DNA from: a bacterium
GTDB lineage: Bacteria > JAMCPX01
NCBI GenBank assembly: GCA_037439545.1
Contig: JBBIVV010000004.1
Coordinates: 14,887 to 78,886, forward strand
Reading direction: 5' to 3'
DNA: 64,000 bases
In this document: piece after piece, positions 9,166 to 30,367 of the stretch
Layout of the letters: each line of letters starts with the position of its first letter
Position numbering within the stretch: position 1 is the stretch's first letter
Program-made: the position numbers and the translations under genes
Notes under the pieces: model-generated
The model's input: the letters and a program-made list of their open reading frames with translations, nothing else
Told to the model about the DNA's origin: nothing
The model's database searches: none

Positions 9166-10755
9166 CTAAGGCATTTGCAGAAGCGTGAATACATGGTCGT
9201 CTACGGCAGCATGGACAGCCTCAACGCTTCTGCCTTCGACGGATACAATGCTTTGAGCCGCTCCGATCTTTTTTAATTCTACGTGTGACCAGGCGGCAGC
9301 GAGCGGCATATTGAGCGCTTTTGCTGCACACTCTTTTGCCGTCCAGACTCTGATGGACGCTTCCAGGCGTCCGAGAGATGATCGTTCGCACAGTGTCTGC
9401 TCGCTTGATTTCATGTAAATATGTGCGCCTTTCAATAGAGTGCCGGTCAGGCGTTCCACGTCTATGCCAACCGGACGATGTCCTCCAACGGCGATAGCGA
9501 AACGGTCATCGTGAGACGCACTGCAGTAAAAATCTTGTTCTCTTCCCGGCAGCATGCACGCCGGGCGTATGCCATCGGGTGCTATTGTTTCTATAAGCTT
9601 CGGATCTTCCGGAACTTCGTTCTTGTAGAGGATACGGGCAAGACGCTTGAGTGCTATCCTCGCTCCTATGTGCTGGTTCCTTTTACGGTGGTGTTGTCTG
9701 AGCCCTGCTTCCAGCTCGCGAGATGACAATATTTTTCCTACAAACGGCAGGATTCCTGCCAGCTCCACGACAGACATTCCTTCGTTTCTCTGTTTTATCG
9801 TCCGGAGATTGTCCTGTTCCGCAGCCTTCACCCACTCGGGCACAATCGTTTTATGTTTGAATATGTCCTTCATTCTCACGCCGAATGTTGCTTCACGGAG
9901 TTCCCCGGCTCTGTCATATATCCATATATCAAAGTCAAGCATGTCCGTCCCGGTCTCTCCTGGAATAACTTTGCAAAAATACGATTCTCCGGCTGCGGTA
10001 GGACGAATAATTGTTCTTTCTGCATATCCCACGGGAAAGGCGACGTAACCGTGATATCGCTGCCCCCATGCACAGGCAACATGAAACGCGGCATCAAGGA
10101 CAAACGGAGAGCCCAAAGGAGGATTGAGCGTGCCGAGATGTGGCGCATGCAGCGATGCCACAGCCCCCTGCCCGGACAGGAGCACTACGCCTGCGGTGTT
10201 GTGGAACGATGGACCAAAAGGTACGAGTTCTTCATAAAGCCTTTCTGCAGGCACAGGAAAACAAATTCCTTCGGCTGCACATGCAGTGTCGAGTGATAAA
10301 GGTATGCGATGGGGTATATCTGAGAATGTTACCCGCACGTGGTCACGCATCCGTGAAATGGTTCCACGTGATGTTCGTACCATGGTACCGAGCGCAGCAG
10401 TCACTGCATCATGCACTTTTGTCTCCATGTCCGTAACTGCTTCCAGAGGAGGCGTTCCGTCAGGCAGAGGAAGAAACCTGAGGAATTCCGCATCCCGGGA
10501 ACCGGACACGCTTTGCCCGGGATAGTGCGCAACGACAGCCTCGGCAAGCCTTTCAAGCGACTCAACCGCCGGATACACCGGCTGTTCCTCTACCCTGTGG
10601 TCTTGAAGATAGGGACGGTTTTCTATCCGGAGCGGCAGGCGTATGCGGGTATTGTTGGTTGGTCCTCTCTCATCATTGATCATAGGTAAGAAGTTTTCTC
10701 CTCTGCTCGTAAAACAAAGTTCCCTTCGATAAACGGGTTTGTCGACTAAAATCAC
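9166..10755 (-). CDS. Fusion protein: PKS-type dehydratase (double hot-dog) domain + Sfp-type 4'-phosphopantetheinyl transferase
   Basis: The N-terminal ~300 aa carry the PKS DH motifs LQDHRVEEQPVYPAVESLE (HxxxGxxxxP-like His motif) and LDAAFH (DxxxH). The C-terminal ~220 aa carry PPTase motifs: FYCSASHDDR, GIDVERL, WTAKECAAKA. GTG start. Confidence 0.65.
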   Translation of the reverse strand: MILVDKPVYRRELCFTSRGENFLPMINDERGPTNNTRIRLPLRIENRPYLQDHRVEEQPVYPAVESLERLAEAVVAHYPGQSVSGSRDAEFLRFLPLPDGTPPLEAVTDMETKVHDAVTAALGTMVRTSRGTISRMRDHVRVTFSDIPHRIPLSLDTACAAEGICFPVPAERLYEELVPFGPSFHNTAGVVLLSGQGAVASLHAPHLGTLNPPLGSPFVLDAAFHVACAWGQRYHGYVAFPVGYAERTIIRPTAAGESYFCKVIPGETGTDMLDFDIWIYDRAGELREATFGVRMKDIFKHKTIVPEWVKAAEQDNLRTIKQRNEGMSVVELAGILPFVGKILSSRELEAGLRQHHRKRNQHIGARIALKRLARILYKNEVPEDPKLIETIAPDGIRPACMLPGREQDFYCSASHDDRFAIAVGGHRPVGIDVERLTGTLLKGAHIYMKSSEQTLCERSSLGRLEASIRVWTAKECAAKALNMPLAAAWSHVELKKIGAAQSIVSVEGRSVEAVHAAVDDHVFTLLQMP

Positions 10756-10939: not shown

Positions 10940-11440
10940 TCATTTTTTGAATAAAGGCATTTTTTGGGGGAACGTCTGCCACATATGGACGGTCTTCTTG
11001 TCCACGGCGACCGGCCATCCGGAGGGGCTCATCGCACAATGCTGCGTAAATCCCGAGCATATAAGTTTGCCTGTCTCGGCATGGGCAATGATATAACGGA
11101 ATGCAACCTTGACGCGGGTTATCTCCGCGGGACGGGTGTAGACCCACATGGGATCATCGTAATACAGGGGCGAATGGAACGTCATACCCAGATCTATAAT
11201 AGGATATACATACCCGCTGTCCTCTACTTCTTTGTACGGATACCCTACGTCTCTCATCAAACTTGCACGTCCCAGTTCAAAATACCTCAGGTAATTGGCA
11301 TGGTAAACGACCTCGGACCGGTCCGTATCTGCATAGAGTGTCCGGTTGAATACCTTGTGCCAGATCAATTTGCCCACAGCATCGCGGACAAACGGAGAAT
11401 CCTTGCTTACGGCTTCGGGTTTAAATGGAGCTGGTCTCAT
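10940..11440 (-). CDS. 4HBT-family hot-dog thioesterase (YbgC-like)
   Basis: 166 aa with 4HBT motif ...SEVVYHANYLRYFELGRASL.... Abuts the KS gene stop. Confidence 0.75.
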   Translation of the reverse strand: MRPAPFKPEAVSKDSPFVRDAVGKLIWHKVFNRTLYADTDRSEVVYHANYLRYFELGRASLMRDVGYPYKEVEDSGYVYPIIDLGMTFHSPLYYDDPMWVYTRPAEITRVKVAFRYIIAHAETGKLICSGFTQHCAMSPSGWPVAVDKKTVHMWQTFPQKMPLFKK

Positions 11441-12706
11441 CTATATTCCCCGGAACACGATACAGCAATTCGTGCCGCCGAAACCAAAAGCATTGGACAT
11501 GGCAATTTCAACTTTCTGCTTCCTCGCCTTATTGGGAACAACGTCAATATTATTAAATGCCGGATCCGGAATGTGGTTCATGGTGGGAAGGATGATCCCC
11601 TGCCGCATACCTTCTATAGTCAGGGCGCCTTCTATGGCAGCGGCTGCTCCCAGGGTATGGCCGATTTGAGATTTGTTTGACGAAATCGGAATGTGCTCAA
11701 GAGCACTGCCAAAAACTTCCCGCAGACAATTTATTTCGTTGAGATCGCCCTTTGGCGTAGAAGTGCCGTGGGTATTTACATACTGTATGTCTCCAGATTT
11801 CAGGCCGGCGTCATCAATGGCCTCCCGCATTGCCCGGGTAACCGTCGGTCCGTTCGGCCTGGTGAAATGGTAGGCATCGGATGTCCAGCCAACGCCGATA
11901 ACCTCGGCCATGGGTTTGAGTCCGTAGATCGGGATGGCTTCTTCGGATGCAAGCACCATGGCTCCCGCACCCTCTGACAGCACGAAGCCCTGGCGGTCTA
12001 CGCTGAACGGCCGGGATGCCTGTCCGGGATCATTCCACGCGCGGTCTTTCTCCGTCACTTTTATCGTTGCATTCATGTTGGCAAATCCATGGAGGATCTC
12101 CGGCATGATCGGGGTATCTACACCGCCGGCAAGGACGAAATCGCTGTCTCCGTCTCTTATCATCCTTGCGCCGATACCAATGGCATAGTTTCCTGAAGCA
12201 CATGCAGCCTGCGGGGAAAAGATGGGGCCGGTGAACCCAAGGAGCATACTTGCTTTGCCCGAGGGAAGATTGGCACAAAGGTTGGGGAGAAGGTAATTAC
12301 TGACACTGTTGGGTCCCCTTTCTTTCAAATTGTTCATGGCTGTCCTGTAGGCGTCATGACCGTTGATCGCAGAGCCCATCAGGCATGCAGTCCTTTCTTT
12401 TACGCCGTCAACCATCTCCAATCCGGCATGTGTCAAAGCATCTTTGCATACTGCCATGGTCAGGATTACATACATTGCATTCCATTCCTTGGCTTCTTTC
12501 TCACTGGAAAAGTCCAGTGCCGCAGGGTTCCAATCGGGGATTTCTCCGACCACATTTGCCAGCGTATCCGCCTTGCACCTGGTAGCGCGCCTGAACCCGG
12601 TCTCTCCCTTCACAGCCCTTTTCCATGTTTCTTTCAAAGTCTTTCCCAGCGGTGTTGCCATTGCATACCCTACGACAAAGACCCTTCTATTTTTAGGTGA
12701 TTTCAT
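11441..12706 (-). CDS. Beta-ketoacyl-ACP synthase (FabF/FabB-like KS)
   Basis: 421 aa with active-site Cys (ACASGNYAIG) and the His-His pair (THGTSTPKGD, GHTLGAAAAIEG). Confidence 0.9.
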   Translation of the reverse strand: MKSPKNRRVFVVGYAMATPLGKTLKETWKRAVKGETGFRRATRCKADTLANVVGEIPDWNPAALDFSSEKEAKEWNAMYVILTMAVCKDALTHAGLEMVDGVKERTACLMGSAINGHDAYRTAMNNLKERGPNSVSNYLLPNLCANLPSGKASMLLGFTGPIFSPQAACASGNYAIGIGARMIRDGDSDFVLAGGVDTPIMPEILHGFANMNATIKVTEKDRAWNDPGQASRPFSVDRQGFVLSEGAGAMVLASEEAIPIYGLKPMAEVIGVGWTSDAYHFTRPNGPTVTRAMREAIDDAGLKSGDIQYVNTHGTSTPKGDLNEINCLREVFGSALEHIPISSNKSQIGHTLGAAAAIEGALTIEGMRQGIILPTMNHIPDPAFNNIDVVPNKARKQKVEIAMSNAFGFGGTNCCIVFRGI

Positions 12707-12712
12707 GATTTT

Positions 12713-13963
12713 TTATCCCATTCTGTGAAAAACAACGCAAGCATTACATCCGCCGAACCCGAATGCGTTCTTTAAAACATACTCCTGCTTCAGTGTCCTT
12801 GCAGACCCGGGAACACAGTCCATGCTTATGGAAGGATCCGGGGTATAGTTGATGGTCGGAAGAATTGTGTCCGTCATCATTCCTTCCATGGCAAATATAC
12901 TCTCCAGGGCACTGGATGCGCCCATTGCGTGGCCGATCAGGGATTTGTTGGCACTCACGGGCGGGATTCTATCTCCGAAAATCTCCTTGAGTGCCCTATA
13001 CTCCACCTCATCTCCCACTTTTGTCGATGCTGCATGTGCATTGATGGCGCTGATATCCGGAGGAGCAATACCCGCATGTTTTATGGCACCATTTATGCAT
13101 TGAACAATGGTGTCCTGCCTGGGCGCGACATAGTGTTGGGCATCGGCAGTCATTGCCCATCCTGCGAGCTCCAGGGAATACCTTAATCCGTGAGCCCTCG
13201 CAAATTCAGGCGTCGATAATATGATACACCCGGCACCTTCCGATATTACGAACCCTCGCCTGTTCACGGAAAACGGCCTGCTTGCCGTGGCCGGTGCTTC
13301 AGGCGGTGCCTGCAGGGTGTTTTGATATGCCCCATTCATGGTCGCAAACCCTGCAACGATGCTTTCCACAAGCGGGAAATCCACTGCTCCGCAAATGGCC
13401 ACGTCAGCCATACCGCTCTGCAACATCATGGATCCTATGATCATGGATGTACTTCCGGTAGCACAGGCTGTGACGGTGGTCACTATAGGTCCTGTGGCAT
13501 TGGTCAGTATCGATACCTTGCCTCCCACCATGTTGACACAGGAATTAGGGTTTACATACGGTTTGGGCAATTGTCCGGATTCCACCATTATCCTGTCCGC
13601 ATCGAGAACCGCGTCAATACCGCCGATAGCAGTGCTGAATGTGGTTGCTATTCTGGGCGACAACTCCCCGGTAATTTCCAGATCGATCTTTTTCAACGCA
13701 CGATGGACTACGAGCATTCCGTATTTAAAAATCGGCGATTTCCATTGCACCATGTTTCTGGGGCTCAAAAACGGGTAAGGGGTAACGTCAACATCCGCAA
13801 CCTGTCCTGCAACCTGCACGGGAAATTTTTCTCTTAAGGGAAACCGTGTAAGGGGGCCGATACCACTGCGGCCGTGAGCAGCCTTGTTCCATTGGTCTTC
13901 AAAGTCCGTACCTAACGGAGAAACTGCATCATATCCCAGAACTACAGGCTTCACCGTATTCAT
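12713..13963 (-). CDS. Beta-ketoacyl-ACP synthase (second KS, catalytically intact)
   Basis: 416 aa with Cys motif TACATGSTS and His motifs AHAASTKVGD, GHAMGASSALES. Confidence 0.9.
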   Translation of the reverse strand: MNTVKPVVLGYDAVSPLGTDFEDQWNKAAHGRSGIGPLTRFPLREKFPVQVAGQVADVDVTPYPFLSPRNMVQWKSPIFKYGMLVVHRALKKIDLEITGELSPRIATTFSTAIGGIDAVLDADRIMVESGQLPKPYVNPNSCVNMVGGKVSILTNATGPIVTTVTACATGSTSMIIGSMMLQSGMADVAICGAVDFPLVESIVAGFATMNGAYQNTLQAPPEAPATASRPFSVNRRGFVISEGAGCIILSTPEFARAHGLRYSLELAGWAMTADAQHYVAPRQDTIVQCINGAIKHAGIAPPDISAINAHAASTKVGDEVEYRALKEIFGDRIPPVSANKSLIGHAMGASSALESIFAMEGMMTDTILPTINYTPDPSISMDCVPGSARTLKQEYVLKNAFGFGGCNACVVFHRMG

Positions 13964-14009: not shown

Positions 14010-15011
14010 TTACCACGGAATGAAACGGTATAATTTTGCAAACATCTCGTAAACTTCGATCCAATTCTGAAAATCCTCGGGGCTACGCATGTGCGCCCGC
14101 TTGTTGACCATAACCCAGCTCATGTGCGCGGCCCCATCTTTGCATGTGGAACAATCCCTGGTGGCAGACGTGCAGCACCGGTGCATTGTCTTGAGATCAG
14201 CCCCATACCGGATAAACCTGATAAGCCGTTTCGGCTGGGGATTGCGGGTATCCATGGGCTCGGTGACCGAAGGGCATTCGCCCCATCCCCATGCGCGGTC
14301 AAGCATTTTCCCTGTTGTGATTATTTTGTGGTAATACTTACTGGAGATTACGGTGTTATCGTATTTTTCCAGCATATAATCCATTTCCTCGCGCACGCTT
14401 TTAAGTATTTCCGGAGTCCATACGAACCCTTCCACGTCTTCATCGTTCGAAAATAACTGGAGGTGGACTTTGAGCCCGGCGTCCTTTATTTTTTTAACAA
14501 TACGTTCAATCGTGCCGGTCCCGACCTGTTTGGGTGTTATGGTGTACAGATAGTACGTGTAAGGGTCGCCCTCATAATTTTTCAGCGATATGCCGAACGT
14601 GTTCTTACCGCGCAGCACTTTCTCTTCGCTCTCGTCTCCCCACAGGGAGATTCCGACCATCATGTCCGGAAACCTGCTCCTTGGAATTTTGATCAGACCG
14701 TTTGTCGCACAATAGGTGGGAATACGCCGGTAAAACGCTTCAATCCTGTCAAGGAACAGCGTTGGTTCGCCTCCGATCAATATTGCCAGGTTCACGCCCC
14801 TTTCCTTCTCCTTATCGACAAACTCTTCCCATCTATGGATATCGGACTCTTCTTCCAGTTTGTGCTCGTCCGAAGAAAAGAAGAAACAGCCTTTACATCT
14901 CAGGTTACACTTGTTCGTCATGTCGTAGATGGAACTGCGTATGTTGAGATTGGAAATGGCGTTATACCGTTTTTTCCATTCTCCGTCTATAAGCGTACTT
15001 ACCGTGTGCAT
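14010..15011 (-). CDS. Radical SAM protein with C-terminal Cys cluster (SPASM/twitch-like)
   Basis: Cx3Cx2C motif (CNLRCKGC) near the N-terminus, glycine-rich SAM motif (ILIGGEPTL), C-terminal CCTSATRDCSTCKD cluster. Paralog of 15692-16780. Confidence 0.8.
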   Translation of the reverse strand: MHTVSTLIDGEWKKRYNAISNLNIRSSIYDMTNKCNLRCKGCFFFSSDEHKLEEESDIHRWEEFVDKEKERGVNLAILIGGEPTLFLDRIEAFYRRIPTYCATNGLIKIPRSRFPDMMVGISLWGDESEEKVLRGKNTFGISLKNYEGDPYTYYLYTITPKQVGTGTIERIVKKIKDAGLKVHLQLFSNDEDVEGFVWTPEILKSVREEMDYMLEKYDNTVISSKYYHKIITTGKMLDRAWGWGECPSVTEPMDTRNPQPKRLIRFIRYGADLKTMHRCCTSATRDCSTCKDGAAHMSWVMVNKRAHMRSPEDFQNWIEVYEMFAKLYRFIPW

Positions 15012-15027
15012 GTAATCTTTTTTTACC

Positions 15028-15618
15028 TCAGCGGGTACTTCTTATTGCATGATCAAACCCTCTGTCCTCCAATATTGCACGTACCATTTTATCGATCATC
15101 TTGTATGCCCGCTTCTCAAGAAGTCCGGAATCGGTCGTCACTGCCGGCTCCATGGTTACGGTAAAACGCTTCTGGAAGGATGCACCTTTGCCGTGCACGC
15201 TGACCATATACTGGAACTGCTGGTCCGTAATGGACTCCAGTGTGATGTCTACCTCCGGGGCATTTGACGCCTGATCCATGCTATGCACCTCAAGTCCTGC
15301 ACTCTGAAAGGCCTTTTGAATGCAATACCAGAAATACGATGTCAGACTCGGCCAGCTCTCATAGGTCATGGAGCCCTGAGGATTATAGTAATACCACATG
15401 GTCGTATTGTTCGCCTGGTTGTCTATGTTGGCGAGATATATCGACTTTCCGCGATAGCCCGGGAATGTCCTTCCGAGCTCCGGCATATAATTGTTCTGCG
15501 TGATCTCTACCTTTGCAGAGCCGCCATTGATTCCGCGCCTGCAACCTCCTGCAACTGCGATCATAAGAATGGTTATCGTACCTATCCATGCAACTACTCT
15601 GAACGTGTTATTCCGCAT
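15028..15618 (-). CDS. Lipoprotein, unknown function
   Basis: Signal peptide with lipobox (IAVAGGC); 196 aa, no recognisable domain. Confidence 0.5.
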   Translation of the reverse strand: MRNNTFRVVAWIGTITILMIAVAGGCRRGINGGSAKVEITQNNYMPELGRTFPGYRGKSIYLANIDNQANNTTMWYYYNPQGSMTYESWPSLTSYFWYCIQKAFQSAGLEVHSMDQASNAPEVDITLESITDQQFQYMVSVHGKGASFQKRFTVTMEPAVTTDSGLLEKRAYKMIDKMVRAILEDRGFDHAIRSTR

Positions 15619-15691
15619 TCTTTTCTCCTTTAGATTTAATCGATATTTTTGTTTTGAAAAAATTCCATTGTTTCACCGACGGCAGCTCGCA

Positions 15692-16780
15692 TCAAAAACC
15701 CGGGGGCTGCTGCATATGAGAACACAGGTTCTCTCCCTTCTCATATCCCTTGACCCAGACGGCAAGGTACGTATCTACATAATCAAGCCATGATTTAAAG
15801 ATGTCCGGGTCCCCTGTGTGTCTGTTGAGCTTCGAGGTAACTATAGAACTCCCTGCGGCATAATGCCTGCAATCATCGCACACCGTGTCCGGCACGCAGC
15901 ATGCAGCACTTCTGTCCCACGTAAGATCAGTCCTGTACTGCCGGAATGACCTGCCGAGTCCTAATGCAGTGGATGAATTCATGCGTGGATAGGGACATGA
16001 GAATAATCGATACAGACTGCTCCTGTGGGTATGCACCGTGGCACTATATTTTGAAAACAGTACGGCCCCCGGGTATTTTTCCAACAGATCTATCATTACA
16101 TGGCGGGCTTTATCCAGCGTTTCCGGCGTATGCAATAGATTTCCTGAGTAGTCCATCGGTGCTGAAAACATATTGAACGTAAATTTACAATCATTTGACG
16201 CCAGTATGTCTGCGACCTCATAGGCTTCATCGATTGTATTCCTGCAGAAAGTGTATACGAATACCGCACGCGGGTCACCGGCATAATTATCGATTTGTTT
16301 TTTGAGCAGGTTCCCGGCTTTTCTTACTCTGCGGCTGGTCTCATCATTACCCCATACCGAGATGTGTATCTTGTATCCGACTGATTCCGGTATACGTTTG
16401 AGTCCGTTTGTAGCTATGCACCCTAACGGGATTTCCCCATAGCACGCGTGCAGCAGATCCGGGACGAGGGACGGCTCGGCACCGGCGAGAACAACGAATG
16501 TTATGCCCCTTTCTTTTTCCTTCCGGAAGAGGTCGCGCCATGCCTGCGGGTCGAGATTTTCCCGTGCAAATTGTTTTTCTCCGTTATAGTAGTAGCATCC
16601 GTCGCACCGCATGTTGCACCTCGTGGCCATGTCATACGTGGATTCCCGTAAAAAAAAGTATTTCCTGACCTTTTCCCAACGTTCCCGCACACGTGTATCC
16701 TCAAGAAGGTCTGCGAATTTCCATTCTTTTGTCAATGGTAAAGGGTCATGAAGGCTTAATGCTGCATTATCCGATTTCAT
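15692..16780 (-). CDS. Radical SAM protein with C-terminal Cys cluster (paralog of 14010-15011)
   Basis: CNMRCDGC Cx3Cx2C motif, VLAGAEPSL, C-terminal CCVPDTVCDDCRHY cluster. Start chosen at the internal ATG (MKSDNAAL) preceded by GAGGGA; the ORF track extends to 16873. Confidence 0.8.
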   Translation of the reverse strand: MKSDNAALSLHDPLPLTKEWKFADLLEDTRVRERWEKVRKYFFLRESTYDMATRCNMRCDGCYYYNGEKQFARENLDPQAWRDLFRKEKERGITFVVLAGAEPSLVPDLLHACYGEIPLGCIATNGLKRIPESVGYKIHISVWGNDETSRRVRKAGNLLKKQIDNYAGDPRAVFVYTFCRNTIDEAYEVADILASNDCKFTFNMFSAPMDYSGNLLHTPETLDKARHVMIDLLEKYPGAVLFSKYSATVHTHRSSLYRLFSCPYPRMNSSTALGLGRSFRQYRTDLTWDRSAACCVPDTVCDDCRHYAAGSSIVTSKLNRHTGDPDIFKSWLDYVDTYLAVWVKGYEKGENLCSHMQQPPGF

Positions 16781-16935
16781 TATATTTGTGTCCCTCAAAA
16801 AAATTACACGTCTGCGGGTTATTGTCAAGACTTTGTAATTGTTGTTAATTGAACGGGTGAAACAGTTGCACACACGGTGATCGATCTGAAAATAGTGTAA
16901 AAGGATGAAGAGTTTTTCGGTTTAATACAGAGAAC

Positions 16936-17679
16936 CTATTTCAGGACGTCTATAACCGCGTGCCCTCTGAGTATCAGGTCATTATGCACCTCGATAAACC
17001 ACGGCATAGTGGGTGCGGTCATGCCGAAATCGGTGAATCGGGCATTGATTTTTGCCGAGACTGCAAACTCATTATTTCCCGTCTTATTGAAAGATACGGT
17101 AGTATCGAAATCTTTCGATCCCCCTGCTACCGAAAGCCTTCCGGTCACATGAATTTCACCCTTATCCCCGTGGAGAGCGTTGAGGATGTCCTCTTTTAGT
17201 TTTCCCCGTACCTGTATATCTCCCGCTTCTGCACGCAAGACCAGGGGAGAGTCTCCTTTGTCCGGGACAAGAATATCAACGGTCATATCCTGCAGGCTGG
17301 TCATCATGGCAGTGTTTTTCTCTGCCGGTCCCAGAATTTTTGACAGCGGCTCTCCGTCTATGTTCAAAACCTCAAAGGTTATTTCCGGATAGGTCCCTGA
17401 TTTCAAATACAATGTCTTCACCGACCAGTCCCTCATCGGCTTGTCGGTTTTGAATCCTGCAGCATCGATCATGAGCTTTGCCTGCACATGTTCAGGGGAA
17501 GCAAGCACGTTGATTGAAAGGCCGTCATTTTGTCCAATAACTGTTTTTAATGCAGACCCGAGATTCGTTTCGTGTGCTTCGTACGAAACAGACGCTTTTG
17601 TAACCCGGAATTCTATAATGGGTCTTTGCTGAGCTGCAATAAGCATTGAATGAAGTACTATACCTGCGAGTAAAACCAT
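16936..17679 (-). CDS. Secreted YceI-like lipid/polyisoprenoid-binding protein
   Basis: Signal peptide; KLMIDAAGFKTDKPMRDWSVKTLYLKSGTYPEITFEV resembles the YceI family core. Assignment by eye only. Confidence 0.45.
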   Translation of the reverse strand: MVLLAGIVLHSMLIAAQQRPIIEFRVTKASVSYEAHETNLGSALKTVIGQNDGLSINVLASPEHVQAKLMIDAAGFKTDKPMRDWSVKTLYLKSGTYPEITFEVLNIDGEPLSKILGPAEKNTAMMTSLQDMTVDILVPDKGDSPLVLRAEAGDIQVRGKLKEDILNALHGDKGEIHVTGRLSVAGGSKDFDTTVSFNKTGNNEFAVSAKINARFTDFGMTAPTMPWFIEVHNDLILRGHAVIDVLK

Positions 17680-17853
17680 ATACCTTTACCTCCCTTTTGC
17701 CCCGTCGGAAGTTTAACCATCCGCACCTGTCTGCCTTTGCGGAAGATGCCCTCCGGCTAAAACCTTTTCACGGGGTTTACAATCTTTTCCACTCATATTA
17801 AGTATAGTATGCATGATTGATAAATCAAGGGTAAAATAAGCACGCACTGCGGC

Positions 17854-18426
17854 TTAAGAATTGGATTTGTTTTCCCGAACGTATTTTTCAAGACTTCTGT
17901 ATAAGGTGTTCGTATTTTGTTCAACAAGTGAAAACAGAATCTTCGAGATTTCATCGTTTATCTTGCTTATGAGCGCCGCGGGAACAAGAGGATAATTTAA
18001 GAAATTAACAGTAATCTCGCCCTGTGCCGTTATTACCGTATATTCGCCGTCCGTCGAGTATATGTCTTTGCCGGAAACCTTGATGTATTCCTTAAAAACG
18101 AATGGTTCATACGTCCAGTTGCATACATAAGTATCATTGTACCACTCGGCAATGTCAAGCCATGCCATATCTGGCACCTTTATTACCTGGCCTATGATAT
18201 CGGGCAATATGTGCTTACCCTGCCATTTACTTGTAATATAGGTTATATCGCCCTTATTTTTTCTTTCGAGTATTATCATGTTTACAATGTTCGGCATATA
18301 GACCACCAACTTGTCGAGGTCATCCCGCACGGTCTCATAAGCAACGTGCATGGGTAAAGCAATTTTCACCGAATGTTCAAAATGCATATAATGAGACATG
18401 TAACAGGAATCGTATGCCGGCGTCAA
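17854..18426 (-). CDS. Hypothetical protein (190 aa); first gene of the minus-strand cluster block
   Basis: ORF in operon position immediately downstream of the divergent promoter region; no confident family. Confidence 0.4.
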   Translation of the reverse strand: MTPAYDSCYMSHYMHFEHSVKIALPMHVAYETVRDDLDKLVVYMPNIVNMIILERKNKGDITYITSKWQGKHILPDIIGQVIKVPDMAWLDIAEWYNDTYVCNWTYEPFVFKEYIKVSGKDIYSTDGEYTVITAQGEITVNFLNYPLVPAALISKINDEISKILFSLVEQNTNTLYRSLEKYVRENKSNS

Positions 18427-18577
18427 GTGCCTTTGGAAAGAAAAATATAATTTGCAAGATTCGGAATAATTTGTAATAATTCAAAAAATTATGTTATAGC
18501 ATCACCTGCTCAAAGCTCATAACAAAAAGGAGATTTATGTTTTTAAGAATAAAAAATAAAACCAGGAACTGCGCTCT

Positions 18578-19792
18578 ATGAAGTTTCATCTCATATTTCC
18601 AAAATGGCCGAAGTTGCCTTCGCAGACACCTTTCACCCTGCCGCCCTTAGGGATTATCACTGTGGCTGCAAGTATGCCCGATAGTGTTGAAACAAGCGTA
18701 TGCGATGAAAACGTACAACCCGTGGATTTTGACGGCAACTTTGATATTATCGGCATATCCATTATGCTGAGCTGCCAGGCACCGCGGGCTTACGAAATCG
18801 CCCATGAATTTAAAAAACGCGGCAAAACAGTCATCCTCGGGGGACTCCATGTATCGCTGCTCCCGGACGAGGCCGGCCAACACGCCGACAGTATCGTCAC
18901 CGGGGAAGTGGAGGGTCTTTTGGGGGAGATTGTCAAGGACTTCCAGGAAGGTAAGCTTAAAAAATCATACGCGGTAAAGGGTTTTCCGGATATCGCTCAG
19001 ATCCCGAACCCAAGACGGGATCTTTACGACAAAAAAAGACATTATGTGTATAAAGGATGGGAGTTGGTAGATCTTGTCCAGACGTCGCGGGGGTGCCGTT
19101 TTAATTGCTATCCATGCTGTGTGCCTTATCTGGGCGGACGCATGCACCGGATGCGTCCGATCGATCATGTCGTTTCGGACATGAAAACGTGCTCCGACCT
19201 TTTATTCATCGTCGATAATTCTCTGGAGCAGAATGTGGCATGGGAAAAGGAGGTCTTCAGGTCCATGATAGGTATGGGAAAACGCTGGGTATCGCACCCC
19301 ATCTCTCCTGTACCCGAGGTGCTGGACCTGGCACGGAAGGCAGGCTGCTGGTATATTTATCACGCCATATACACCATCTCGGACAAAATCAGAGACAGGA
19401 TAAAGATGTACCACGACTACGGCATCGGAGTGGAAGGCACCATCCTCCTCGGTATGGATGAACATACTGAAGACTTTATCAAGCGGTTCATCGATTTCCT
19501 CCTCACCATAGAGCTTGATCTCGCCGAGTTTACGGTCCTCACGCCGTTTCCAGGCACGCAGGTCTATGAACAAATGAATGCAGAAGGCAGAATATTCGAT
19601 AAAGACTGGAACCATTACAATGCCTCTACAGTGGTCATTCAGCCGCGCCGGATGAAACCGGAAACCCTCCAGAGACTGTACTATGAGGCGTGGGACAATT
19701 TTTATGCTGCCGAATCGCAGTCTGTAAAGATGAGCAGGCTCTTTTTGCAAATATACAAGGACAGGCGGAAGGGTACTCTTGAAAAGGCTTAG
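18578..19792 (+). CDS. B12-binding-domain radical SAM protein
   Basis: N-terminal cobalamin-binding-like region (IIGISIMLSCQ...KTVILGGLHVS) and radical SAM CRFNCYPC (Cx3Cx2C). Confidence 0.8.
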   Translation: MKFHLIFPKWPKLPSQTPFTLPPLGIITVAASMPDSVETSVCDENVQPVDFDGNFDIIGISIMLSCQAPRAYEIAHEFKKRGKTVILGGLHVSLLPDEAGQHADSIVTGEVEGLLGEIVKDFQEGKLKKSYAVKGFPDIAQIPNPRRDLYDKKRHYVYKGWELVDLVQTSRGCRFNCYPCCVPYLGGRMHRMRPIDHVVSDMKTCSDLLFIVDNSLEQNVAWEKEVFRSMIGMGKRWVSHPISPVPEVLDLARKAGCWYIYHAIYTISDKIRDRIKMYHDYGIGVEGTILLGMDEHTEDFIKRFIDFLLTIELDLAEFTVLTPFPGTQVYEQMNAEGRIFDKDWNHYNASTVVIQPRRMKPETLQRLYYEAWDNFYAAESQSVKMSRLFLQIYKDRRKGTLEKA

Positions 19793-19902: not shown

Positions 19903-20193
19903 ATGGTAACACAAACAAAAAAATTGACCGTCCAGGATATTCAGTTGAAGGTCTCGGAAATATTTATCAATGAACTTAAGCTTGAAGATGTGACCCCTGA
20001 GACATTGGATCCGGAACTGCACTTGATGGAGGAGCTGGGAATCGACAGCATGGATCTCATAACAGTAGTGTTAGTTCTGAAGGATGAATTCGCAGTCAAT
20101 ATTGATGAGGCTGATTATCCAAAACTTACCAATATCCGGCTTATCGCTGAGTATATTAAGGAGAAAATGGAAAATGCAAGAAGCGCCCGTTGA
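19903..20193 (+). CDS. Acyl carrier protein 1
   Basis: 96 aa with phosphopantetheine attachment motif LGIDSMDL. Confidence 0.8.
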   Translation: MVTQTKKLTVQDIQLKVSEIFINELKLEDVTPETLDPELHLMEELGIDSMDLITVVLVLKDEFAVNIDEADYPKLTNIRLIAEYIKEKMENARSAR

Positions 20194-20464
20194 CAAATTG
20201 CCCGTTGACAAATTGATAGATGAACTGAAAAGAAAGGTTCTCGATATCCTCAATATTCAGGATATCGGCCTGAGCGACATAGACACCAATTCTCCCCTGG
20301 TGGGGAGTAATTTAGGCATTGATTCTATCGATATCCTGGAACTTGTCACTGTCATCGAACATGATTACGGGGTAAAAATAGATAATAAAGAGTTGGGCGA
20401 GAAGGTATTCGCCTCATTTGCCTCTCTGGCACAATATATAGCAGACAATAGGACTCTCATTTGA
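20174..20464 (+). CDS. Acyl carrier protein 2 (overlaps ACP1 by 20 nt, different frame)
   Basis: Start at ATG 20174 (MQEAPVDK...) after AAGGAG. Motif LGIDSIDILE. The ORF track begins further upstream at 20084. Confidence 0.75.
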   Translation: MQEAPVDKLPVDKLIDELKRKVLDILNIQDIGLSDIDTNSPLVGSNLGIDSIDILELVTVIEHDYGVKIDNKELGEKVFASFASLAQYIADNRTLI

Positions 20465-20465
20465 T

Positions 20466-22637
20466 GTGTCCATGATGACACCTGAAGGCATTTTCATCAC
20501 AGGTCTCGGCATCATTAGTCCTCTGGGAAAAGGCCGGCTCTCAACAGTCAGTTCGTTAAAAAATTCATTCTGCGGCATTCACAACGTCAATGTGTTCACG
20601 GTAGCTCCGGACCAGCTCATGCCTGTTGCGGATGTTTCCATCCCTTTCGAAGTTGAGCCCGGAGTCCCGAGGACCCATGCACTTGCACTCGCAGCAGCAC
20701 GCGATGCAATGGAAGGCAAAAACTGTATACCGGACGCCGTGATTATGGGAGTTACAACCGGAGGAATGCCGAAAAGCGAGGTGTTGCTTAAATCAAAGGT
20801 CAGGATCCCTCAGGAGTATACCTATCATGGGGCAGGTACTATCGCCACTTATTTAGCAGAGCATTTCTCGTGTCAGGGACCGGCATTAACCATATCGACC
20901 GCGTGTTCCAGCGGCACGGCAGCCATTATAATAGCACGGGAACTGATCCGGCATGGAAAGGCAGAAAAGGTGCTCGTCGGTGGAGCAGATGCGCTCTGTC
21001 TGTTTACCTATTTCGGGTTTTTTTCGTTGCAGTTAATGGATGCCAGGGGTGCGCGTCCTCTGGACAAGGATCGGGCAGGCATGTCACTGGGTGAAGGTGC
21101 TGCCGTACTCTTTATCGAAAAGTCACAGAGTCCGCCGCCAGGCTCTATCGCACAGATTCTTGGCGGTGGTATTTCCTGCGATGCCTATCATCCGACCGCG
21201 CCGCATCCTGCGGGTGACGGTGCGGTGAAAGCCATGCGCGGGGCCATTGCAGACGCAGGCATCTCGGTCGGCGATATTGAATATGTAAACCTCCACGGGA
21301 CAGCGACACAGGATAACGATGCTTCGGAGGCTATTGCCATCCGGACATTGTTCGGTGACCGGTTCCCCGCACTATCTTCCACCAAAGGTATGACGGGTCA
21401 TTCTCTCGGCGCATCCGGTGCAGTCGAATGTGCCCTCTGTTCATTGTCCGTGTCAGAAGGAATAATCCCGGGGACAATAGGCTGCACGAACCTTGATACA
21501 AAACTCGGAATACCGGCTGTGCTGCACCCGGAAAATCATCCGGTAAGAATTGCCCTCTCCAATTCTTTCGGTTTCGGCGGCAATAATGCCTCTGTGGTAA
21601 TCGGTTCTGCGGACCTACGGCCGCCTGAGCGGCCGCTTATGCATGTCCGGAGCCTGAATGTTATCGGACTTGCTTGTTTAACCGGTGCCGGAGGTGCGGA
21701 TGCCTCTTTCCAAAAATTTTCACAGGGCGATTCTCTCTCCGGGACACTGAGCGATGAAGAGATATCCAGAGACCTTCCCCAGAGACAAATCAGGCGCCTC
21801 AAGAGACTTCCCCGTATGGCACTTGCCCTGGCAAACGCAGCCAGAAAGGATGCCGGTGATAAATTTCACCCTTCCTCGATTTTTTTCGGTACAGGATGGG
21901 GCCCCTTATCCGAGACCTATGACTTTCTTACAAAACTTTTCGGATCCGACATGAGATTTTTCAGCCCGACGGATTTTATCAATTCCGTGCACAATGCACC
22001 GGCGGGCCAGGTGGCCATGGAGTTTAAGGCAATGGGAACGAACCTTACGGCAACAGGCGGGGATTATTCCTTTGAGCAGGCACTTTTGATGGCAAGCCTT
22101 CTGGCCTCGGAAAAGGAAGAGCTCATGCTCTTCGGGGCAGACGAGATGCATCCGGAACTGTCCCCCCTCTTTGATCCCTCGGTCCCCGGTGAGAGAATTC
22201 CCTCTGACGGCGGCGGGGCACTTATGGCAGTGGCAACGACCTCTCCCTCGGGTCCTGCGATAACACCGGTTGTATATCGAATGGCTGCGAAGGATTCCGG
22301 GTGGGCGATAATGAATGACCTCAAGGTTACCGACTTCCATAAACATTATGCTGCTATTTTTGCAGGGATCCCTTCAGCGTATGAAAAAATGGCCGGAGAT
22401 CAGTTAACGGATTTTCTTTCCTCTTCAAAATTTAATGGGCCTGTTATTCACTACCGGAAGTACACAGGTCAATATGCAACATCATCTGCTGTTGCTGCTG
22501 CTCTGGCAGTCAAAATCATACAGCAGGGTTTTCTTCCTGCGGGTTTGACGCACGCCGACGAAGTTTCTCTGGGAGAGAAAGGGATTCTGGTCATGGGTTT
22601 TGGTCCTTATTGCACAGCCGTCGACATCCGTAACTGA
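20466..22637 (+). CDS. Fused ketosynthase - chain-length-factor-like didomain protein (KS-CLF)
   Basis: The N-terminal ~380 aa form an active KS (TACSSGTAAI, HGTATQDND, GHSLGASG). The C-terminal ~340 aa form a second KS fold (IRRLKRLPRMALALANAARKDAG...) in which the active Cys position reads TATGGDYS, with no Cys. Confidence 0.8.
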   Translation: MSMMTPEGIFITGLGIISPLGKGRLSTVSSLKNSFCGIHNVNVFTVAPDQLMPVADVSIPFEVEPGVPRTHALALAAARDAMEGKNCIPDAVIMGVTTGGMPKSEVLLKSKVRIPQEYTYHGAGTIATYLAEHFSCQGPALTISTACSSGTAAIIIARELIRHGKAEKVLVGGADALCLFTYFGFFSLQLMDARGARPLDKDRAGMSLGEGAAVLFIEKSQSPPPGSIAQILGGGISCDAYHPTAPHPAGDGAVKAMRGAIADAGISVGDIEYVNLHGTATQDNDASEAIAIRTLFGDRFPALSSTKGMTGHSLGASGAVECALCSLSVSEGIIPGTIGCTNLDTKLGIPAVLHPENHPVRIALSNSFGFGGNNASVVIGSADLRPPERPLMHVRSLNVIGLACLTGAGGADASFQKFSQGDSLSGTLSDEEISRDLPQRQIRRLKRLPRMALALANAARKDAGDKFHPSSIFFGTGWGPLSETYDFLTKLFGSDMRFFSPTDFINSVHNAPAGQVAMEFKAMGTNLTATGGDYSFEQALLMASLLASEKEELMLFGADEMHPELSPLFDPSVPGERIPSDGGGALMAVATTSPSGPAITPVVYRMAAKDSGWAIMNDLKVTDFHKHYAAIFAGIPSAYEKMAGDQLTDFLSSSKFNGPVIHYRKYTGQYATSSAVAAALAVKIIQQGFLPAGLTHADEVSLGEKGILVMGFGPYCTAVDIRN

Positions 22638-22644
22638 GGCAGTT

Positions 22645-24120
22645 ATGCGTTTAACAGATCATATAATTATTATAGGTTCGGGTATCGGAGGAATGACCGC
22701 TGCAATCGTTCTTGCAAAACTGGGATACCGTGTGACTGTCGTCGAAAAAAACAAACGCCCCGGCGGCCTGATGAGGAGTTATATTCGGGAAGGCGTCGAA
22801 TGCGAAGTCGGGCTCCACTATGTCGGCGCAATGGACACAGGCCAGCCTTTGCGGCAGATCTTCGATCTCCTCGGTATATCGGGGCGTATACCTGCCGTAC
22901 GCATGGGAGAAGACGGGATTGTCGATAAATATATTCTACCCGGGATGGTGTTCGACTTCCCCCCCGGCATTGATATGTTCGAAGAGAACCTTCATAAGGC
23001 TTTCCCTGAAGAAGGCCGCCGGATAGCGGAGATTGCCGCCCTAATCCGCAATGCAATTGTACGCTTTTCCGCTTTGTCAATTTTTTTCGGGGAAAAAGAA
23101 GAGTTTGATCTTTCATGGGAACTACAGCCTGTGGAGAATTACTTTAATAAACTCGGATGTTCCCTGAAATTGCGCAGTATCCTTTCTGTTCCGCTGGCTT
23201 GGCTTGGTGTGGGACCCGGGGAGTGCCCCATGTACCTATGGAGTTCTTCGATATCATCATACCTGATGTCCTCCTGGCGCCTGCCGCAGGGAGGTGCACA
23301 TTTGGCGGATACACTTGCAGAAAGGCTGCGGGGGCTTGGCGGGGAAATCATTTGTAATGACGGAGTCTCCAGGATAACCGTACGTGATCATGCAGTACAG
23401 GGAGTGGTCCTGAAATCCGGGAGAGAATTGGCTTCTTCAGTGATTATAGCGGCAATTCATCCAAAATTAATGCTCCGAATGCTTCCCGCTGATTCTTATA
23501 AACCTTCCTTTAAAAACAGGATCTCATCGCTTCAGGAGACTCCGGGAATATTTGCCGCGCACATCGCAATTCCCGAACAAGAGGTTTCTTACAAACCGTA
23601 TAATATCTTTGCCTTTGATGCGGACAATACCGTGCACGGCGGAGTGACATTTTTTACTATGAAGAAATCTTCCAAGCCCGGGTGGAACTGTATTTCCATC
23701 CTTGAAGAAAGTCCTTATGAAAAGTGGCAGTCCTGGGAAAACACCACAAGGAAACACCGCCCTCAGGATTACAGGGATGCCAAGGATCGGGAGACCGGTA
23801 TTCTTTTGAATAAAGCTTTGAAAATCTTCGGTCATATGCAGGGGGCGCAGGTCGTGGATTCTTTTACCCCGTTATCGTTCTGTGACTGGATGGATAGCCC
23901 GCAGGGGGGTGCCTATGGTGTGAGTCATTCTGTCAGACAGAAGTTTAAAACTGCGGCACTGCACAGGACGCCTCTGTCGGGATTGCACGTGGTGGGACAG
24001 AGCGTTTTTGCCCCGGGTATACTGGGCACTGCTTTGGGAACGCTCCGGGTCATTGCTTCTCTTGTCGGATACGATACTCTGCATCAAAAATTTATTGACT
24101 CACGGGAAGAGGGGATTTAA
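22645..24120 (+). CDS. FAD-dependent oxidoreductase, phytoene-desaturase (CrtI)/amine-oxidase-like
   Basis: Dinucleotide-binding IIIIGSGIGGMTAAIVLAKLGYRVTVVEKN plus the long CrtI-like body. Start at ATG 22645, 8 nt after the KS-CLF stop. Confidence 0.75.
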   Translation: MRLTDHIIIIGSGIGGMTAAIVLAKLGYRVTVVEKNKRPGGLMRSYIREGVECEVGLHYVGAMDTGQPLRQIFDLLGISGRIPAVRMGEDGIVDKYILPGMVFDFPPGIDMFEENLHKAFPEEGRRIAEIAALIRNAIVRFSALSIFFGEKEEFDLSWELQPVENYFNKLGCSLKLRSILSVPLAWLGVGPGECPMYLWSSSISSYLMSSWRLPQGGAHLADTLAERLRGLGGEIICNDGVSRITVRDHAVQGVVLKSGRELASSVIIAAIHPKLMLRMLPADSYKPSFKNRISSLQETPGIFAAHIAIPEQEVSYKPYNIFAFDADNTVHGGVTFFTMKKSSKPGWNCISILEESPYEKWQSWENTTRKHRPQDYRDAKDRETGILLNKALKIFGHMQGAQVVDSFTPLSFCDWMDSPQGGAYGVSHSVRQKFKTAALHRTPLSGLHVVGQSVFAPGILGTALGTLRVIASLVGYDTLHQKFIDSREEGI

Positions 24121-24137: not shown

Positions 24138-25691
24138 ATGAAGAAAAAACATATACACAATAAATCCGTTCAGAAGCCTGTCGTCATCGGAGAAGGTGAT
24201 GTCACGCTCGTTCAGGTAGCAGATATCGCACGCGGCGTGTCCCGCGTTGCGATCAGTTCTCAAAAGAATTTTATCGACAAGATACGGCTGTCTCAAAAAA
24301 CTCTGCAGCGTGTTCTCGATGCCGACGAGCCGATATACGGCGTAACGACCGGATACGGTGCGGCATGCGGCAACAGGATTAAGAAGCACAATACGGAAGA
24401 ACTTGGCAGCAATCTCATAAAATATCACGGCTGCGGCACCGGTGCTCCTTTAGGCATAGAGGAGACGCGTGCGTCTATCGTGGCCAGACTGGTATGCTTT
24501 GCGCGAGGATACTCGGGTGTTTCCGTCAATCTGATGCAGGCCATGGCGGACTTGCTCAATAAAGGTATTACTCCTATCGTCCCGTCTATGGGATCTGTCG
24601 GCGCATCAGGGGACCTCACCCCGATGTCGTATATTGCAGCATGTCTGTCCGGAGACAGGGATGTCCTGTATAAAGGGCGCAGGATGAGCTCAAAAAAAGC
24701 CTTGTCTCAGGCCGGACTATCCCCCTACCGTTTTCTCCCGAAAGAACCTCTCGGTATGATCAACGGGACATCGGTAATGACAGGGATTGCCGTAATCGCT
24801 CTCAAGAAGAGCAGGGTTATCGTTGATATGGCAATGGCGGCAACCGCACTCGCACTCCATGCCCTCATGGGACATGAAAGGCATTTTCATCCGACCGTGG
24901 TCAATTCAAAGCCTCATCCGGGACAGCAACTGGCAGGGGAACGGCTGCGGAATATTTTATCTTCAATAGATCGGCCGCCGGAATCGGACAAGCAGGATCA
25001 TTTTCAGGACCCGTATTCCATTCGCTGCGCTCCCCAGATCATCGGCGTTGCGTACGACGCCCTTGATTGGGCCGAGGAATGGGTCCAGAGAGAGGTAAAC
25101 AGTTCCAACGACAATCCGCTTGCAGACGGCGACCATAAAGAGGTTTTCATGGGCGGTAATTTTTATGGCGGACATATAGCGTTTGCCATGGATGCACTGA
25201 AGAGTGCCCTTGCATCGGTTGCCGATATGATAGACCGTCAGATGGCGCTTTTGGTGGACCAGCGGTACAACCGCGGGCTTCCGGCAAACCTCGTGAAAGT
25301 GAAAGGGGGCAAACAACTGCTCAATCACGGGTTCAAAGGCATGCAGATAACTGCGTCAGCTTTAGCCGCAGAGGCTTTGAAAAACACCATGCCTGCTGCA
25401 TCCTTTTCAAGGTCAACCGAATCTCACAATCAGGACAAGGTGAGTATGGGTACCATTTCAGCGAGGGATGCTGCATGGCAATGCGAATTGGTGGGCCGTG
25501 TTGTCGCCATACATCTCATGGCTGCGGTCCAGGCATGCGAATTGAGAGGCGGCTTGAACGGAAGGCCTGTGCTTGCTTCGCTCGCAAAAGAAGTTCGGAA
25601 AAAAGTCAGGGCAACGGTTTTCGATCGTCCGATGGATAAGGACATTGAAGTTCTTGCAGATGCACTGCCGGAGCTGGTGCGTTCCCTATGA
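24138..25691 (+). CDS. MIO-dependent aromatic amino acid ammonia-lyase (HAL/PAL/TAL family)
   Basis: 517 aa with Ala-Ser-Gly MIO triad in GASGDLTPMSYIAA and conserved YGVTTGYG, NGTS, NDNPL motifs. Confidence 0.85.
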   Translation: MKKKHIHNKSVQKPVVIGEGDVTLVQVADIARGVSRVAISSQKNFIDKIRLSQKTLQRVLDADEPIYGVTTGYGAACGNRIKKHNTEELGSNLIKYHGCGTGAPLGIEETRASIVARLVCFARGYSGVSVNLMQAMADLLNKGITPIVPSMGSVGASGDLTPMSYIAACLSGDRDVLYKGRRMSSKKALSQAGLSPYRFLPKEPLGMINGTSVMTGIAVIALKKSRVIVDMAMAATALALHALMGHERHFHPTVVNSKPHPGQQLAGERLRNILSSIDRPPESDKQDHFQDPYSIRCAPQIIGVAYDALDWAEEWVQREVNSSNDNPLADGDHKEVFMGGNFYGGHIAFAMDALKSALASVADMIDRQMALLVDQRYNRGLPANLVKVKGGKQLLNHGFKGMQITASALAAEALKNTMPAASFSRSTESHNQDKVSMGTISARDAAWQCELVGRVVAIHLMAAVQACELRGGLNGRPVLASLAKEVRKKVRATVFDRPMDKDIEVLADALPELVRSL

Positions 25692-29019: not shown

Positions 29020-29115
29020 AGGAATAAGCGTTGCGGAAATTGCGTTATAAGCATTGACATAAAAACATTTATTATCTAAAAATCTAAGAAAGACTAATGC
29101 AAAAGGAAGAAGAAA

Positions 29116-30348: not shown

Positions 30349-30367
30349 TAGTGCCGCAGACGGAAAC

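Follow-up and report, generated by a model that had tools for sequence, protein, structure and literature searches.

In 2009, Rattray et al. described gene clusters in Kuenenia that resemble type II fatty acid synthase (FAS II) systems and carry radical S-adenosylmethionine (SAM) enzymes, phytoene-desaturase-like enzymes, and extra FabF paralogs, and they noted clusters syntenic with those of Kuenenia in Desulfotalea, Geobacter, and Pelobacter (PMC2649909). No enzyme of these anammox and deltaproteobacterial clusters has been demonstrated to work (PMC4790861). A 2026 review still regards the cluster chemistry as hypothetical, and the ladderanes and the product of Jaw5 are the only ketoacyl (non-isoprenoid) lipids for which it names a proposed modification by radical SAM enzymes (PMC13459092). 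Metagenome surveys have reported antiSMASH "ladderane" biosynthetic gene cluster (BGC) calls, of unknown function, in Desulfobacterota, Myxococcota, and other phyla (PMC9902471). We analyzed a 64-kb stretch of the bacterial contig JBBIVV010000004.1 (the window, numbered from its first nucleotide), which contains a member of this published "ladderane-like" FAS II/radical SAM cluster type, known since 2009 and still unsolved. Our subject is a pair of radical SAM paralogs in this cluster, rSAM1 and rSAM2, together with the genes that accompany them. The cluster shares with the anammox and deltaproteobacterial clusters the extra FabF paralogs, dedicated acyl carrier proteins (ACPs), phytoene-desaturase-like flavoenzymes, and both B12-binding and non-B12 radical SAM enzymes. 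Unlike those clusters, it has no FabZ and no member of TIGR04072, the NCBIfam "lipid biosynthesis B12-binding/radical SAM protein" model that marks such clusters, those of Kuenenia (kuste3335-3352, kuste3603-3608, and kuste2802-2805) included, and its ketosynthase (KS) and chain-length factor (CLF) are fused.

rSAM1 (333 aa) and rSAM2 (362 aa) are encoded on the minus strand at 14010-15011 and 15692-16780. Compared by BLASTP, the two proteins were 31% identical across 310 residues with an E value of 1e-43, a similarity far beyond chance. A preliminary description of this DNA had called them paralogs at these same coordinates and had quoted four motifs from them (YDMTNKCNLRCKGCFFF, YDMATRCNMRCDGCYYY, KEKERGVNLAILIGGEPTL, and KEKERGITFVVLAGAEPSL), every one of which is present. 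Both proteins scored above the cut-off (29.5 bits) of the Pfam Radical_SAM model (PF04055), rSAM1 with 36.7 bits and rSAM2 with 29.7 bits. For Cys conservation, 81 rSAM1 and 71 rSAM2 orthologues were extracted from related loci. The CX3CX2C motif and C246, C279, C280, C287, and C290 (rSAM1 numbering) were essentially invariant among these orthologues, with each Cys of rSAM2 conserved in 70-72 of 72 sequences, and in a joint alignment all eight Cys were invariant across the rSAM1 and rSAM2 families; the motif and auxiliary Cys were thus not lost on proper alignment, as the preliminary description had allowed they might be. C101 of rSAM1 is a family-specific Cys. At least 95% identity was found in 177 of the 333 rSAM1 columns. 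The CX3CX2C motif was also invariant in the family of a third, B12-binding radical SAM enzyme of the cluster, and the best fold matches of the structural model built for the pair (below) were radical SAM enzymes, placing these proteins in the radical SAM superfamily. Because the paralogy, the motifs, the invariance of the Cys, and the profile threshold of the B12 enzyme (below) all held, the earlier observation is confirmed, and the reasoning built on it was for the most part sound.

The C-terminal Cys clusters had been described as SPASM-like. Their pattern is C-x32-CC-x6-C-x2-C in rSAM1, with x31 and x5 at the corresponding positions in rSAM2. A SPASM domain (PF13186/TIGR04085) has seven Cys in the pattern CX9-15GX4C...CX2CX5CX3C...C and two auxiliary clusters, and is detectable by curated profiles. 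The paralogs have five conserved C-terminal Cys rather than seven, with different spacing. Among the Pfam and NCBIfam models, no SPASM profile matched full-length rSAM1 or rSAM2 at E ≤ 0.01, and none, TIGR04085 included, matched the C-terminal 100 aa alone at E ≤ 10, so the profile search proposed as a check on the label did not bear it out. What stands of it is a set of conserved Cys and a plausible auxiliary Fe-S site. A twitch domain is a shortened SPASM-like C-terminal domain with a Cys-flanked beta-hairpin and one auxiliary cluster; the sole twitch-named NCBIfam model, NF033640, gave 19.4 bits against a cut-off of 170. We built an AlphaFold2 model from 42 sequences of both families (predicted local distance difference test [pLDDT] score 84.4, predicted template modeling score 0.86), in which a beta-hairpin was predicted between the first and second C-terminal Cys. 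The closest relatives of the predicted fold were the twitch/SPASM enzymes BlsE, SkfB, and anSME. The alignment profile matched SkfB among PDB sequences at E 6.8e-10, over the core only, and rSAM1 alone gave only weak matches to the shared core of enzymes with solved structures. With twitch/SPASM folds nearest and no SPASM profile matching, a full SPASM domain is less likely than a single twitch-like auxiliary cluster. It is fair to state that the enzymes appear to belong to the twitch/SPASM structural neighborhood, and most likely each has a single predicted auxiliary cluster that is twitch-like at best.

Members of the twitch/SPASM subgroup (BlsE, SkfB, BtrN, DesII, MoaA, anSME, SuiB, and PqqE) were the best profile matches among PDB sequences. 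Like them, the pair has a Cys-rich C-terminal extension after a partial TIM barrel. It differs from them in its genomic setting of ACP and KS genes, in place of peptides, sugars, or nucleotides. Cofactor roles of the NirJ, MoaA, and PqqE kind were considered and rejected; none of these models reached 32 bits (their cut-offs are 280-650), and the neighborhood holds no cognate genes.

We scanned 185,579 species genomes with rSAM1 and found 335 relatives, of which the best 80 were taken for detailed comparison of loci. In these 80, rSAM1 was 72-89% identical to that of the window, and the hosts belonged to Spirochaetota/Leptospirales, Syntrophales, Desulfobacterales, and Myxococcota; the nearest relatives of the window organism are labelled "Deltaproteobacteria bacterium". 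Clustering at 50% placed all full-length rSAM1 members under one representative, and only 210 representative clusters fell below 1e-10 in 1.8 billion proteins. The preliminary description had considered such enzymes rare and biochemically uncharacterized. With 335 species representatives and a cluster type described in 2009, rarity does not hold, whereas no biochemical characterization was found (PMC4790861, PMC13459092).

The related loci share a cassette of seven genes on one strand, in the order ACP1, rSAM2, rSAM1, KS_B, KS_A, thioesterase, and dehydratase, the last with or without a fused 4'-phosphopantetheinyl transferase (PPTase). This order was found in 26 complete loci and 24 near-complete loci, and median gaps between adjacent genes were 4-13 nt (stop-bounded open reading frames [ORFs]), with some genes overlapping. 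Corrected for the extent of the flanks, co-occurrence with rSAM1 was 68/69 for rSAM2, 68/72 for KS_B, 64/71 for KS_A, 62/69 for the thioesterase, and 59/68 for ACP1; a dehydratase/PPTase homologue was present in 54 of the 80 loci. rSAM1 and rSAM2 are old paralogs that always travel together as an obligate pair, and they are among the most conserved proteins of the cluster. An ACP1 orthologue lay immediately upstream of rSAM2 in 55 of 64 loci. Those loci with no ACP beside rSAM2 were mainly from the window's own clade, in which ACP1 has moved to the divergent operon. In some relatives (L046 and L010) the dehydratase lacks the PPTase fusion. One Spirochaetota metagenome-assembled genome (MAG), MFD04716.bin.2.40, has two whole cassettes on different contigs (L008 and L012). 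The cassette was also found in the cultured strains Desulfosarcina widdelii PP31 and D. variabilis Montpellier and in a Desulfosudis oleivorans MAG.

Distant superfamily members of the pair, at 30-38% identity, were traced to their surroundings, and five genomic contexts were inspected. One protein, P0253, consists of a TubC_N docking domain, a thioesterase, and an rSAM1-like domain that retains all eight shared Cys; its gene (L084, 8001-10175) directly follows that of a 1754-aa type I polyketide synthase (PKS) module. P0253 comes from one metagenomic contig only, and an assembly or gene-calling artefact is possible. Another, P0311, is a radical SAM domain fused to an AMP-binding (adenylation) domain. 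A Blastocatellia paralog is encoded between a PaaA/C-like protein and an adenylating (AMP-binding) enzyme, a SnoaL-like protein, and a carrier protein, and a further distant paralog lies near type I PKS genes. A diverged cassette in L085 (4187-10853) departs from the usual arrangement, with KS, KS, rSAM2-like (46%), rSAM1-like (36%), ACP, and KS genes in that order, along with a MaoC dehydratase and FabH; because it keeps the pair, the pairing is ancient and predates the highly conserved form. Four of the five contexts therefore link the family to thiotemplated biosynthesis. Look-ups of the distant paralog clusters returned generic names only, with no anammox organism among them.

Besides the pair, the cassette supplies the carrier protein along with its PPTase, two condensing enzymes of the FabF type that look active, a dehydratase, and a thioesterase for release. 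The position of ACP upstream of rSAM2 and the fusions and contexts of the distant paralogs fit action on a chain tethered to a carrier protein, and the substrate of the pair is probably a carrier-bound acyl or polyketide chain in a lipid or pigment pathway. The preliminary description had proposed radical chemistry (C-C cyclization, methylation, or desaturation) on an ACP- or lipid-bound polyene. The ACP-bound chain agrees with the synteny and with the paralog contexts; the polyene nature of the chain and the particular reactions named are conjecture. A net oxidation (dehydrogenation or oxidative cross-linking) is what the auxiliary cluster usually supports in twitch/SPASM enzymes, and for rSAM1 and rSAM2 we put forward a two-electron oxidative tailoring reaction tentatively, as the leading possibility. 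In such a scheme, the substrate would be an acyl or enoyl chain, thioester-linked to ACP1 of the cassette and undergoing extension by the two KS enzymes. Each paralog would abstract a hydrogen atom from an unactivated carbon by way of a 5'-deoxyadenosyl radical, and an auxiliary Fe-S cluster, one of which the five C-terminal Cys may bind, would then accept the second electron. The net outcome would be two successive two-electron oxidations, giving either desaturation or a C-C ring closure or cross-link, in both cases independent of oxygen, after which the thioesterase would release the product.

There are precedents for radical SAM enzymes acting on carrier-bound acyl chains, namely LipA, the Jaw5/C10P cyclopropanases, and CysS (PMC13459092). 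These follow the same proposed logic, in which radical chemistry takes place on a chain tethered as a thioester while it is being extended or shortly afterwards, and the structure of CysS with pantetheine was among the structural matches listed. They have no sequence relationship to the pair beyond the superfamily; Jaw5 is HemN-like, CysS is B12-dependent, and LipA inserts sulfur.

Several points weigh against this interpretation. The data do not discriminate cyclization from desaturation, and the reaction type is unconstrained. Five Cys do not by themselves prove an Fe-S cluster, neither a SPASM nor a twitch sequence profile matches the pair, and the AlphaFold2 model is weakest at residues 240-300, the C-terminal Cys region (pLDDT 52-69). 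The high identity across phyla may be due in part to horizontal transfer rather than constraint. One of the five paralog contexts, that of Ponticaulis, has no carrier-protein genes, and ACP1 of the window lies apart from the pair. The Kuenenia proteins kuste3342 and kuste3343 were undetected on expression in E. coli (PMC4790861), and in the literature on such clusters in Desulfobacterota we found no product or biochemical study, only the 2009 comparative paper, the 2016 failed expression, and the BGC surveys.

In the window, the cassette is split between two divergent operons, one on the minus strand from 9.2 to 18.4 kb and one that starts at 18.6 kb on the plus strand. This stretch forms the radical SAM core of a lipid or polyene gene cluster of the type II FAS/PKS-like kind that covers approximately 24 kb (about 9.2-33 kb), and its features are as follows.

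9166-10755, minus strand: fusion of a PKS-type double-hotdog dehydratase and an Sfp/EntD-type PPTase (PF14765, PF21089, PF01648); the start codon is uncertain.
10940-11440, minus strand: thioesterase of the YbgC/4HBT type (TIGR00051, 72.6 bits, above the cut-off of 68.7).
11441-12706, minus strand: KS_A, the second FabF-like ketosynthase of the cassette (TIGR03150, 376 bits, under the cut-off of 493.75).
12713-13963, minus strand: KS_B, the FabF-like ketosynthase directly 3' of rSAM1 (PF00109 and PF02801), with the Cys-His-His residues present in its sequence.
14010-15011, minus strand: rSAM1, radical SAM enzyme, with CX3CX2C at C35/C39/C42 and the C-terminal C246, C279, C280, C287, and C290.
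15028-15618, minus strand: 196-aa protein with a lipoprotein-type signal (…IAVAGGC), between rSAM1 and rSAM2; the gene call was confirmed in L081, and searches of Pfam and NCBIfam gave no match.
15692-16780, minus strand: rSAM2, the paralog of rSAM1, with CX3CX2C and the same five C-terminal Cys.
16936-17679, minus strand: YceI-like protein of a lipid/polyisoprenoid-binding family (Pfam PF04264, 40.6 bits).
17854-18351, minus strand: 165-aa protein, the first gene of the minus-strand operon, also called at 165 aa in L081; it had no family match in Pfam or NCBIfam and no homologue in the 80 loci.
18578-19792, plus strand: B12-binding (class B) radical SAM enzyme, 404 aa (PF02310, 39.4 bits; PF04055, 27.7 bits).
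19903-20193, plus strand: ACP1, carrier protein (PF00550, 34 bits).
20174-20464, plus strand: ACP2, second carrier protein, 96-aa gene call (PF00550, 32.5 bits).
20472-22637, plus strand: ketosynthase fused to a CLF-like domain (KS-CLF; PF00109, PF02801, PF13723; PRK09185, 307.8 bits).
22645-24120, plus strand: phytoene-desaturase-like FAD-dependent oxidoreductase (PF01593, 61.9 bits; weak CrtD/CrtI-family matches).
24138-27825, plus strand: aromatic amino-acid ammonia-lyase (PF00221, 517 bits), 4HBT thioesterase (PF03061), and Dak2-DegV fusion (PF02734 and PF02645), the accessory end of the plus-strand operon.
28213-32952, both strands: acyltransferase, further KS (PRK09116, 467.7 bits), 221-aa protein of unknown function, LolA-like carrier (LolA2_flexi, 91.9 bits), and FabG/FlxB-like ketoreductase (FlxB, 314.4 bits).

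This gene map matches independent gene calls on L081, a second contig of the same organism. The ATG of rSAM2 at 16780 is correct, being supported by a recorded 362-aa protein (P0121) that is 100% identical and by the gene calls of L081. A scan for promoters and terminators found no excess over shuffled controls (20 vs 16.5±4.6 and 7 vs 11.8±2.7), so no operon boundaries were taken from it. For the ammonia-lyase, all HAL/TAL-type models scored under their cut-offs. The Dak2-DegV fusion (26110-27825, 571 aa) has an N-terminal half of the Dak2 (FakA-like) type followed by a lipid-binding domain of the DegV (FakB-like) type, and homologues were found in only 2 of the 80 related loci. The close relatives L001 and L002 alone have the 196-aa lipoprotein-like gene at 73-76% identity, with weak matches of 29-31% in L027 and L074, and the YceI-like gene is clade-specific, present only in L001, L002, and L004-L007. 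Both insertions are confined to the closest relatives of the window (L001-L007); in other loci the two radical SAM genes adjoin each other and follow an ACP gene. The LolA-like, YceI-like, and lipoprotein genes suggest that the product ends in the cell envelope.

These envelope-related neighbors (YceI-like, lipoprotein, LolA-like, and acyltransferase) could also be read as a sign that the pair tailors a finished membrane lipid, with a free fatty acid, the tail of a phospholipid, or an isoprenoid as substrate, and not an ACP-bound intermediate. The reaction would then be a tail-to-tail C-C coupling of the Tes or GDGT-MAS type, or an adenosylation or cyclization in the membrane, and most known lipid-modifying radical SAM enzymes do act on assembled isoprenoid lipids (2026 review, PMC13459092). 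We consider this explanation unlikely. The envelope genes are clade-specific additions, whereas the invariable partners of the pair are ACP, KS, thioesterase, and PPTase rather than phospholipid enzymes. Paralogs are fused to a PKS docking domain and thioesterase or to an adenylation domain, and the similarity to Tes is limited to the common core (25.9 vs a family cut-off of 450).

Alternatively, rSAM1 and rSAM2 could be peptide or protein maturases, with a small precursor peptide or a protein of the cluster itself (ACP or KS) as the target. Most SPASM/twitch enzymes are of this kind, the best matches of the pair in NCBIfam and the PDB are maturases of ribosomally synthesized and post-translationally modified peptides (RiPPs) or protein modifiers (ScmE, StsB, PapB, SkfB, SuiB, and anSME), and a small ACP gene placed immediately upstream looks like a precursor gene beside its maturase. 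However, these matches extend over no more than the first 60-110 residues of the shared core and are far under their cut-offs (for example, 30 vs 400 bits); the strong homology to RiPP or cofactor maturases with a cognate precursor gene, which the preliminary description had named as evidence that would count against its proposal, was not found. For a RiPP maturase one expects a precursor peptide gene next to it and, in most cases, a recognition element of approximately 90 aa at the N terminus. CX3CX2C starts at residue 35 of rSAM1 and residue 55 of rSAM2, and the N-terminal extensions of 34 and 54 aa are therefore too short to hold a recognition element. Small ORFs within 16780-18600 had no leader-like features and were only overlapping, unconserved ORFs, which agrees with the earlier statement that no precursor peptide was evident; no small ORF of the window was conserved, and in the related loci the cassette genes are packed too tightly to leave room for a precursor gene. 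The upstream gene encodes a bona fide PP-binding carrier protein with a DS(M/I)D motif, and the cassette carries its own PPTase. Taken together, these data make a maturase role very improbable. Least probable of all is a LipA/BioB-type sulfur insertion that would build a cofactor-like small acid on an ACP-bound short chain with the auxiliary cluster as sacrificial sulfur donor, for although LipA is an exact precedent for an auxiliary-cluster radical SAM enzyme on a protein-tethered acyl chain, LipA/BioB-type enzymes rank well below twitch/SPASM enzymes in fold similarity, their sequence motifs and profile matches were not found (Pfam, NCBIfam), and the KS-CLF, desaturase-like flavoenzyme, LolA, and acyltransferase genes point to a long-chain lipid or pigment and not a cofactor.

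Oxidative tailoring of a carrier-bound chain by the pair would take place beside a second module of the cluster, which consists of the B12-binding radical SAM enzyme, the two ACPs, the KS-CLF fusion, and the phytoene-desaturase-like flavoenzyme. The B12 enzyme belongs to a family different from that of rSAM1 and rSAM2. Its B12-binding domain (residues 19-118) passed the PF02310 cut-off (39.4 vs 32.1 bits), and it is the first gene of the divergent plus-strand operon, both as the preliminary description had it. PF04055 fell under its cut-off (27.7 vs 29.5 bits), C173-x3-C177-x2-C180 was invariant in 21 homologues, and the protein ends in a weak DUF4070 tail. An N-terminal cobalamin-binding domain followed by a radical SAM domain makes it a class B radical SAM enzyme by domain architecture only. 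This enzyme probably methylates or rearranges the same chain or a downstream one. It scored 59.7 bits with TIGR04072 ("rSAM_ladder_B12"; cut-off 360), and no member of that family was found anywhere in the 64-kb window. True members were present in L008, L033, and L046 (372-392 bits), and 38 of the 80 related loci had one just upstream of the twin pair, often with a FabZ-like gene, a polysaccharide deacetylase, and a methyltransferase, the accessory set of kuste3338-3351.

Anammox Cluster I (kuste3603-3608) consists of ACP, FabZ, KS, CLF-like FabF, desaturase-like, and B12-binding radical SAM genes (bioRxiv 10.64898/2026.05.19.726425), and the plus-strand operon of the window mirrors this composition except for FabZ. 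The window's relatives are not anammox bacteria. For comparison with Kuenenia we translated the first 128 codons of the codon-optimized genes in Table S2 of PMC4790861, which permits a comparison of N-terminal fragments at the domain level only. The kuste3342 fragment matched the TIGR04072 members of related loci at 34-42% identity (E down to 4e-30). Fragments of kuste3608 and kuste2803 matched the B12 enzyme of the window at 35% (E 6.5e-18) and 38% (E 3e-15), respectively, and the desaturase-like fragment of Cluster I was 26% identical to its window counterpart. The kuste3343 fragment was 37% identical to rSAM1 over 71 residues (E 5e-8), compared to at least 72% for true rSAM1 orthologues; as judged from these 128-aa fragments, the twin pair has no evident Kuenenia orthologue. 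The kuste3603 (amxACP) fragment had no match to the window ACPs at E ≤ 0.01, and the Kuenenia ACP to which ACP2 was 45% identical, kuste3340, is part of the other Kuenenia cluster and not of Cluster I.

The window flank also resembles aryl-polyene/flexirubin clusters in having a PRK09116-type KS, a KS with a PF13723 CLF-like domain, a FlxB-like reductase, and a LolA2-like carrier, along with the acyltransferase, 4HBT thioesterase, and aromatic ammonia-lyase. The diagnostic models all fell under their cut-offs (PRK09116 467.7 vs 470, FlxB 314.4 vs 340, LolA2_flexi 91.9 vs 125, and FlxA 325 vs 700), which places the cluster outside that family. As far as we are aware, radical SAM enzymes are absent from aryl-polyene clusters.

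The host is an uncultured "Deltaproteobacteria"-type anaerobe that bears lipopolysaccharide (LPS). A lipid A acyltransferase and LpxK are encoded at 40551-42517 and indicate a diderm with LPS, consistent with the LolA-like export gene of the cluster. Elsewhere in the window, dnaN and dnaA lie on the minus strand (44841-47464) beside the stretch of lowest GC content (0.345-0.37), the cumulative GC skew has its minimum at approximately 46-48 kb, and mnmE diverges on the other side of an intergenic region at 47.5-47.9 kb; these features make the region look like a chromosomal replication origin.

These findings do not by themselves reveal new chemistry, but they provide a well-defined experimental target. 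The seven-gene cassette isolated here is the minimal testable unit, with the adjacent ACP as the best candidate for the substrate carrier, and the cultured carriers of the cassette make the question experimentally approachable. A bolder proposal, which we regard as speculative and on balance doubtful, is that the twin enzymes carry out oxygen-independent, carbocycle-building C-C bond formation or desaturation on an ACP-tethered chain, leading to lipids or pigments of the envelope that would form an undescribed class and be made by sulfate reducers, syntrophs, anaerobic spirochaetes, and myxobacteria, and that the module of B12 radical SAM enzyme, ACP, KS-CLF, and desaturase-like enzyme is a true non-anammox counterpart of ladderane Cluster I. 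If that were true, ladderane-type radical chemistry would be open to study in cultivable hosts such as Desulfosarcina or Desulfosudis.

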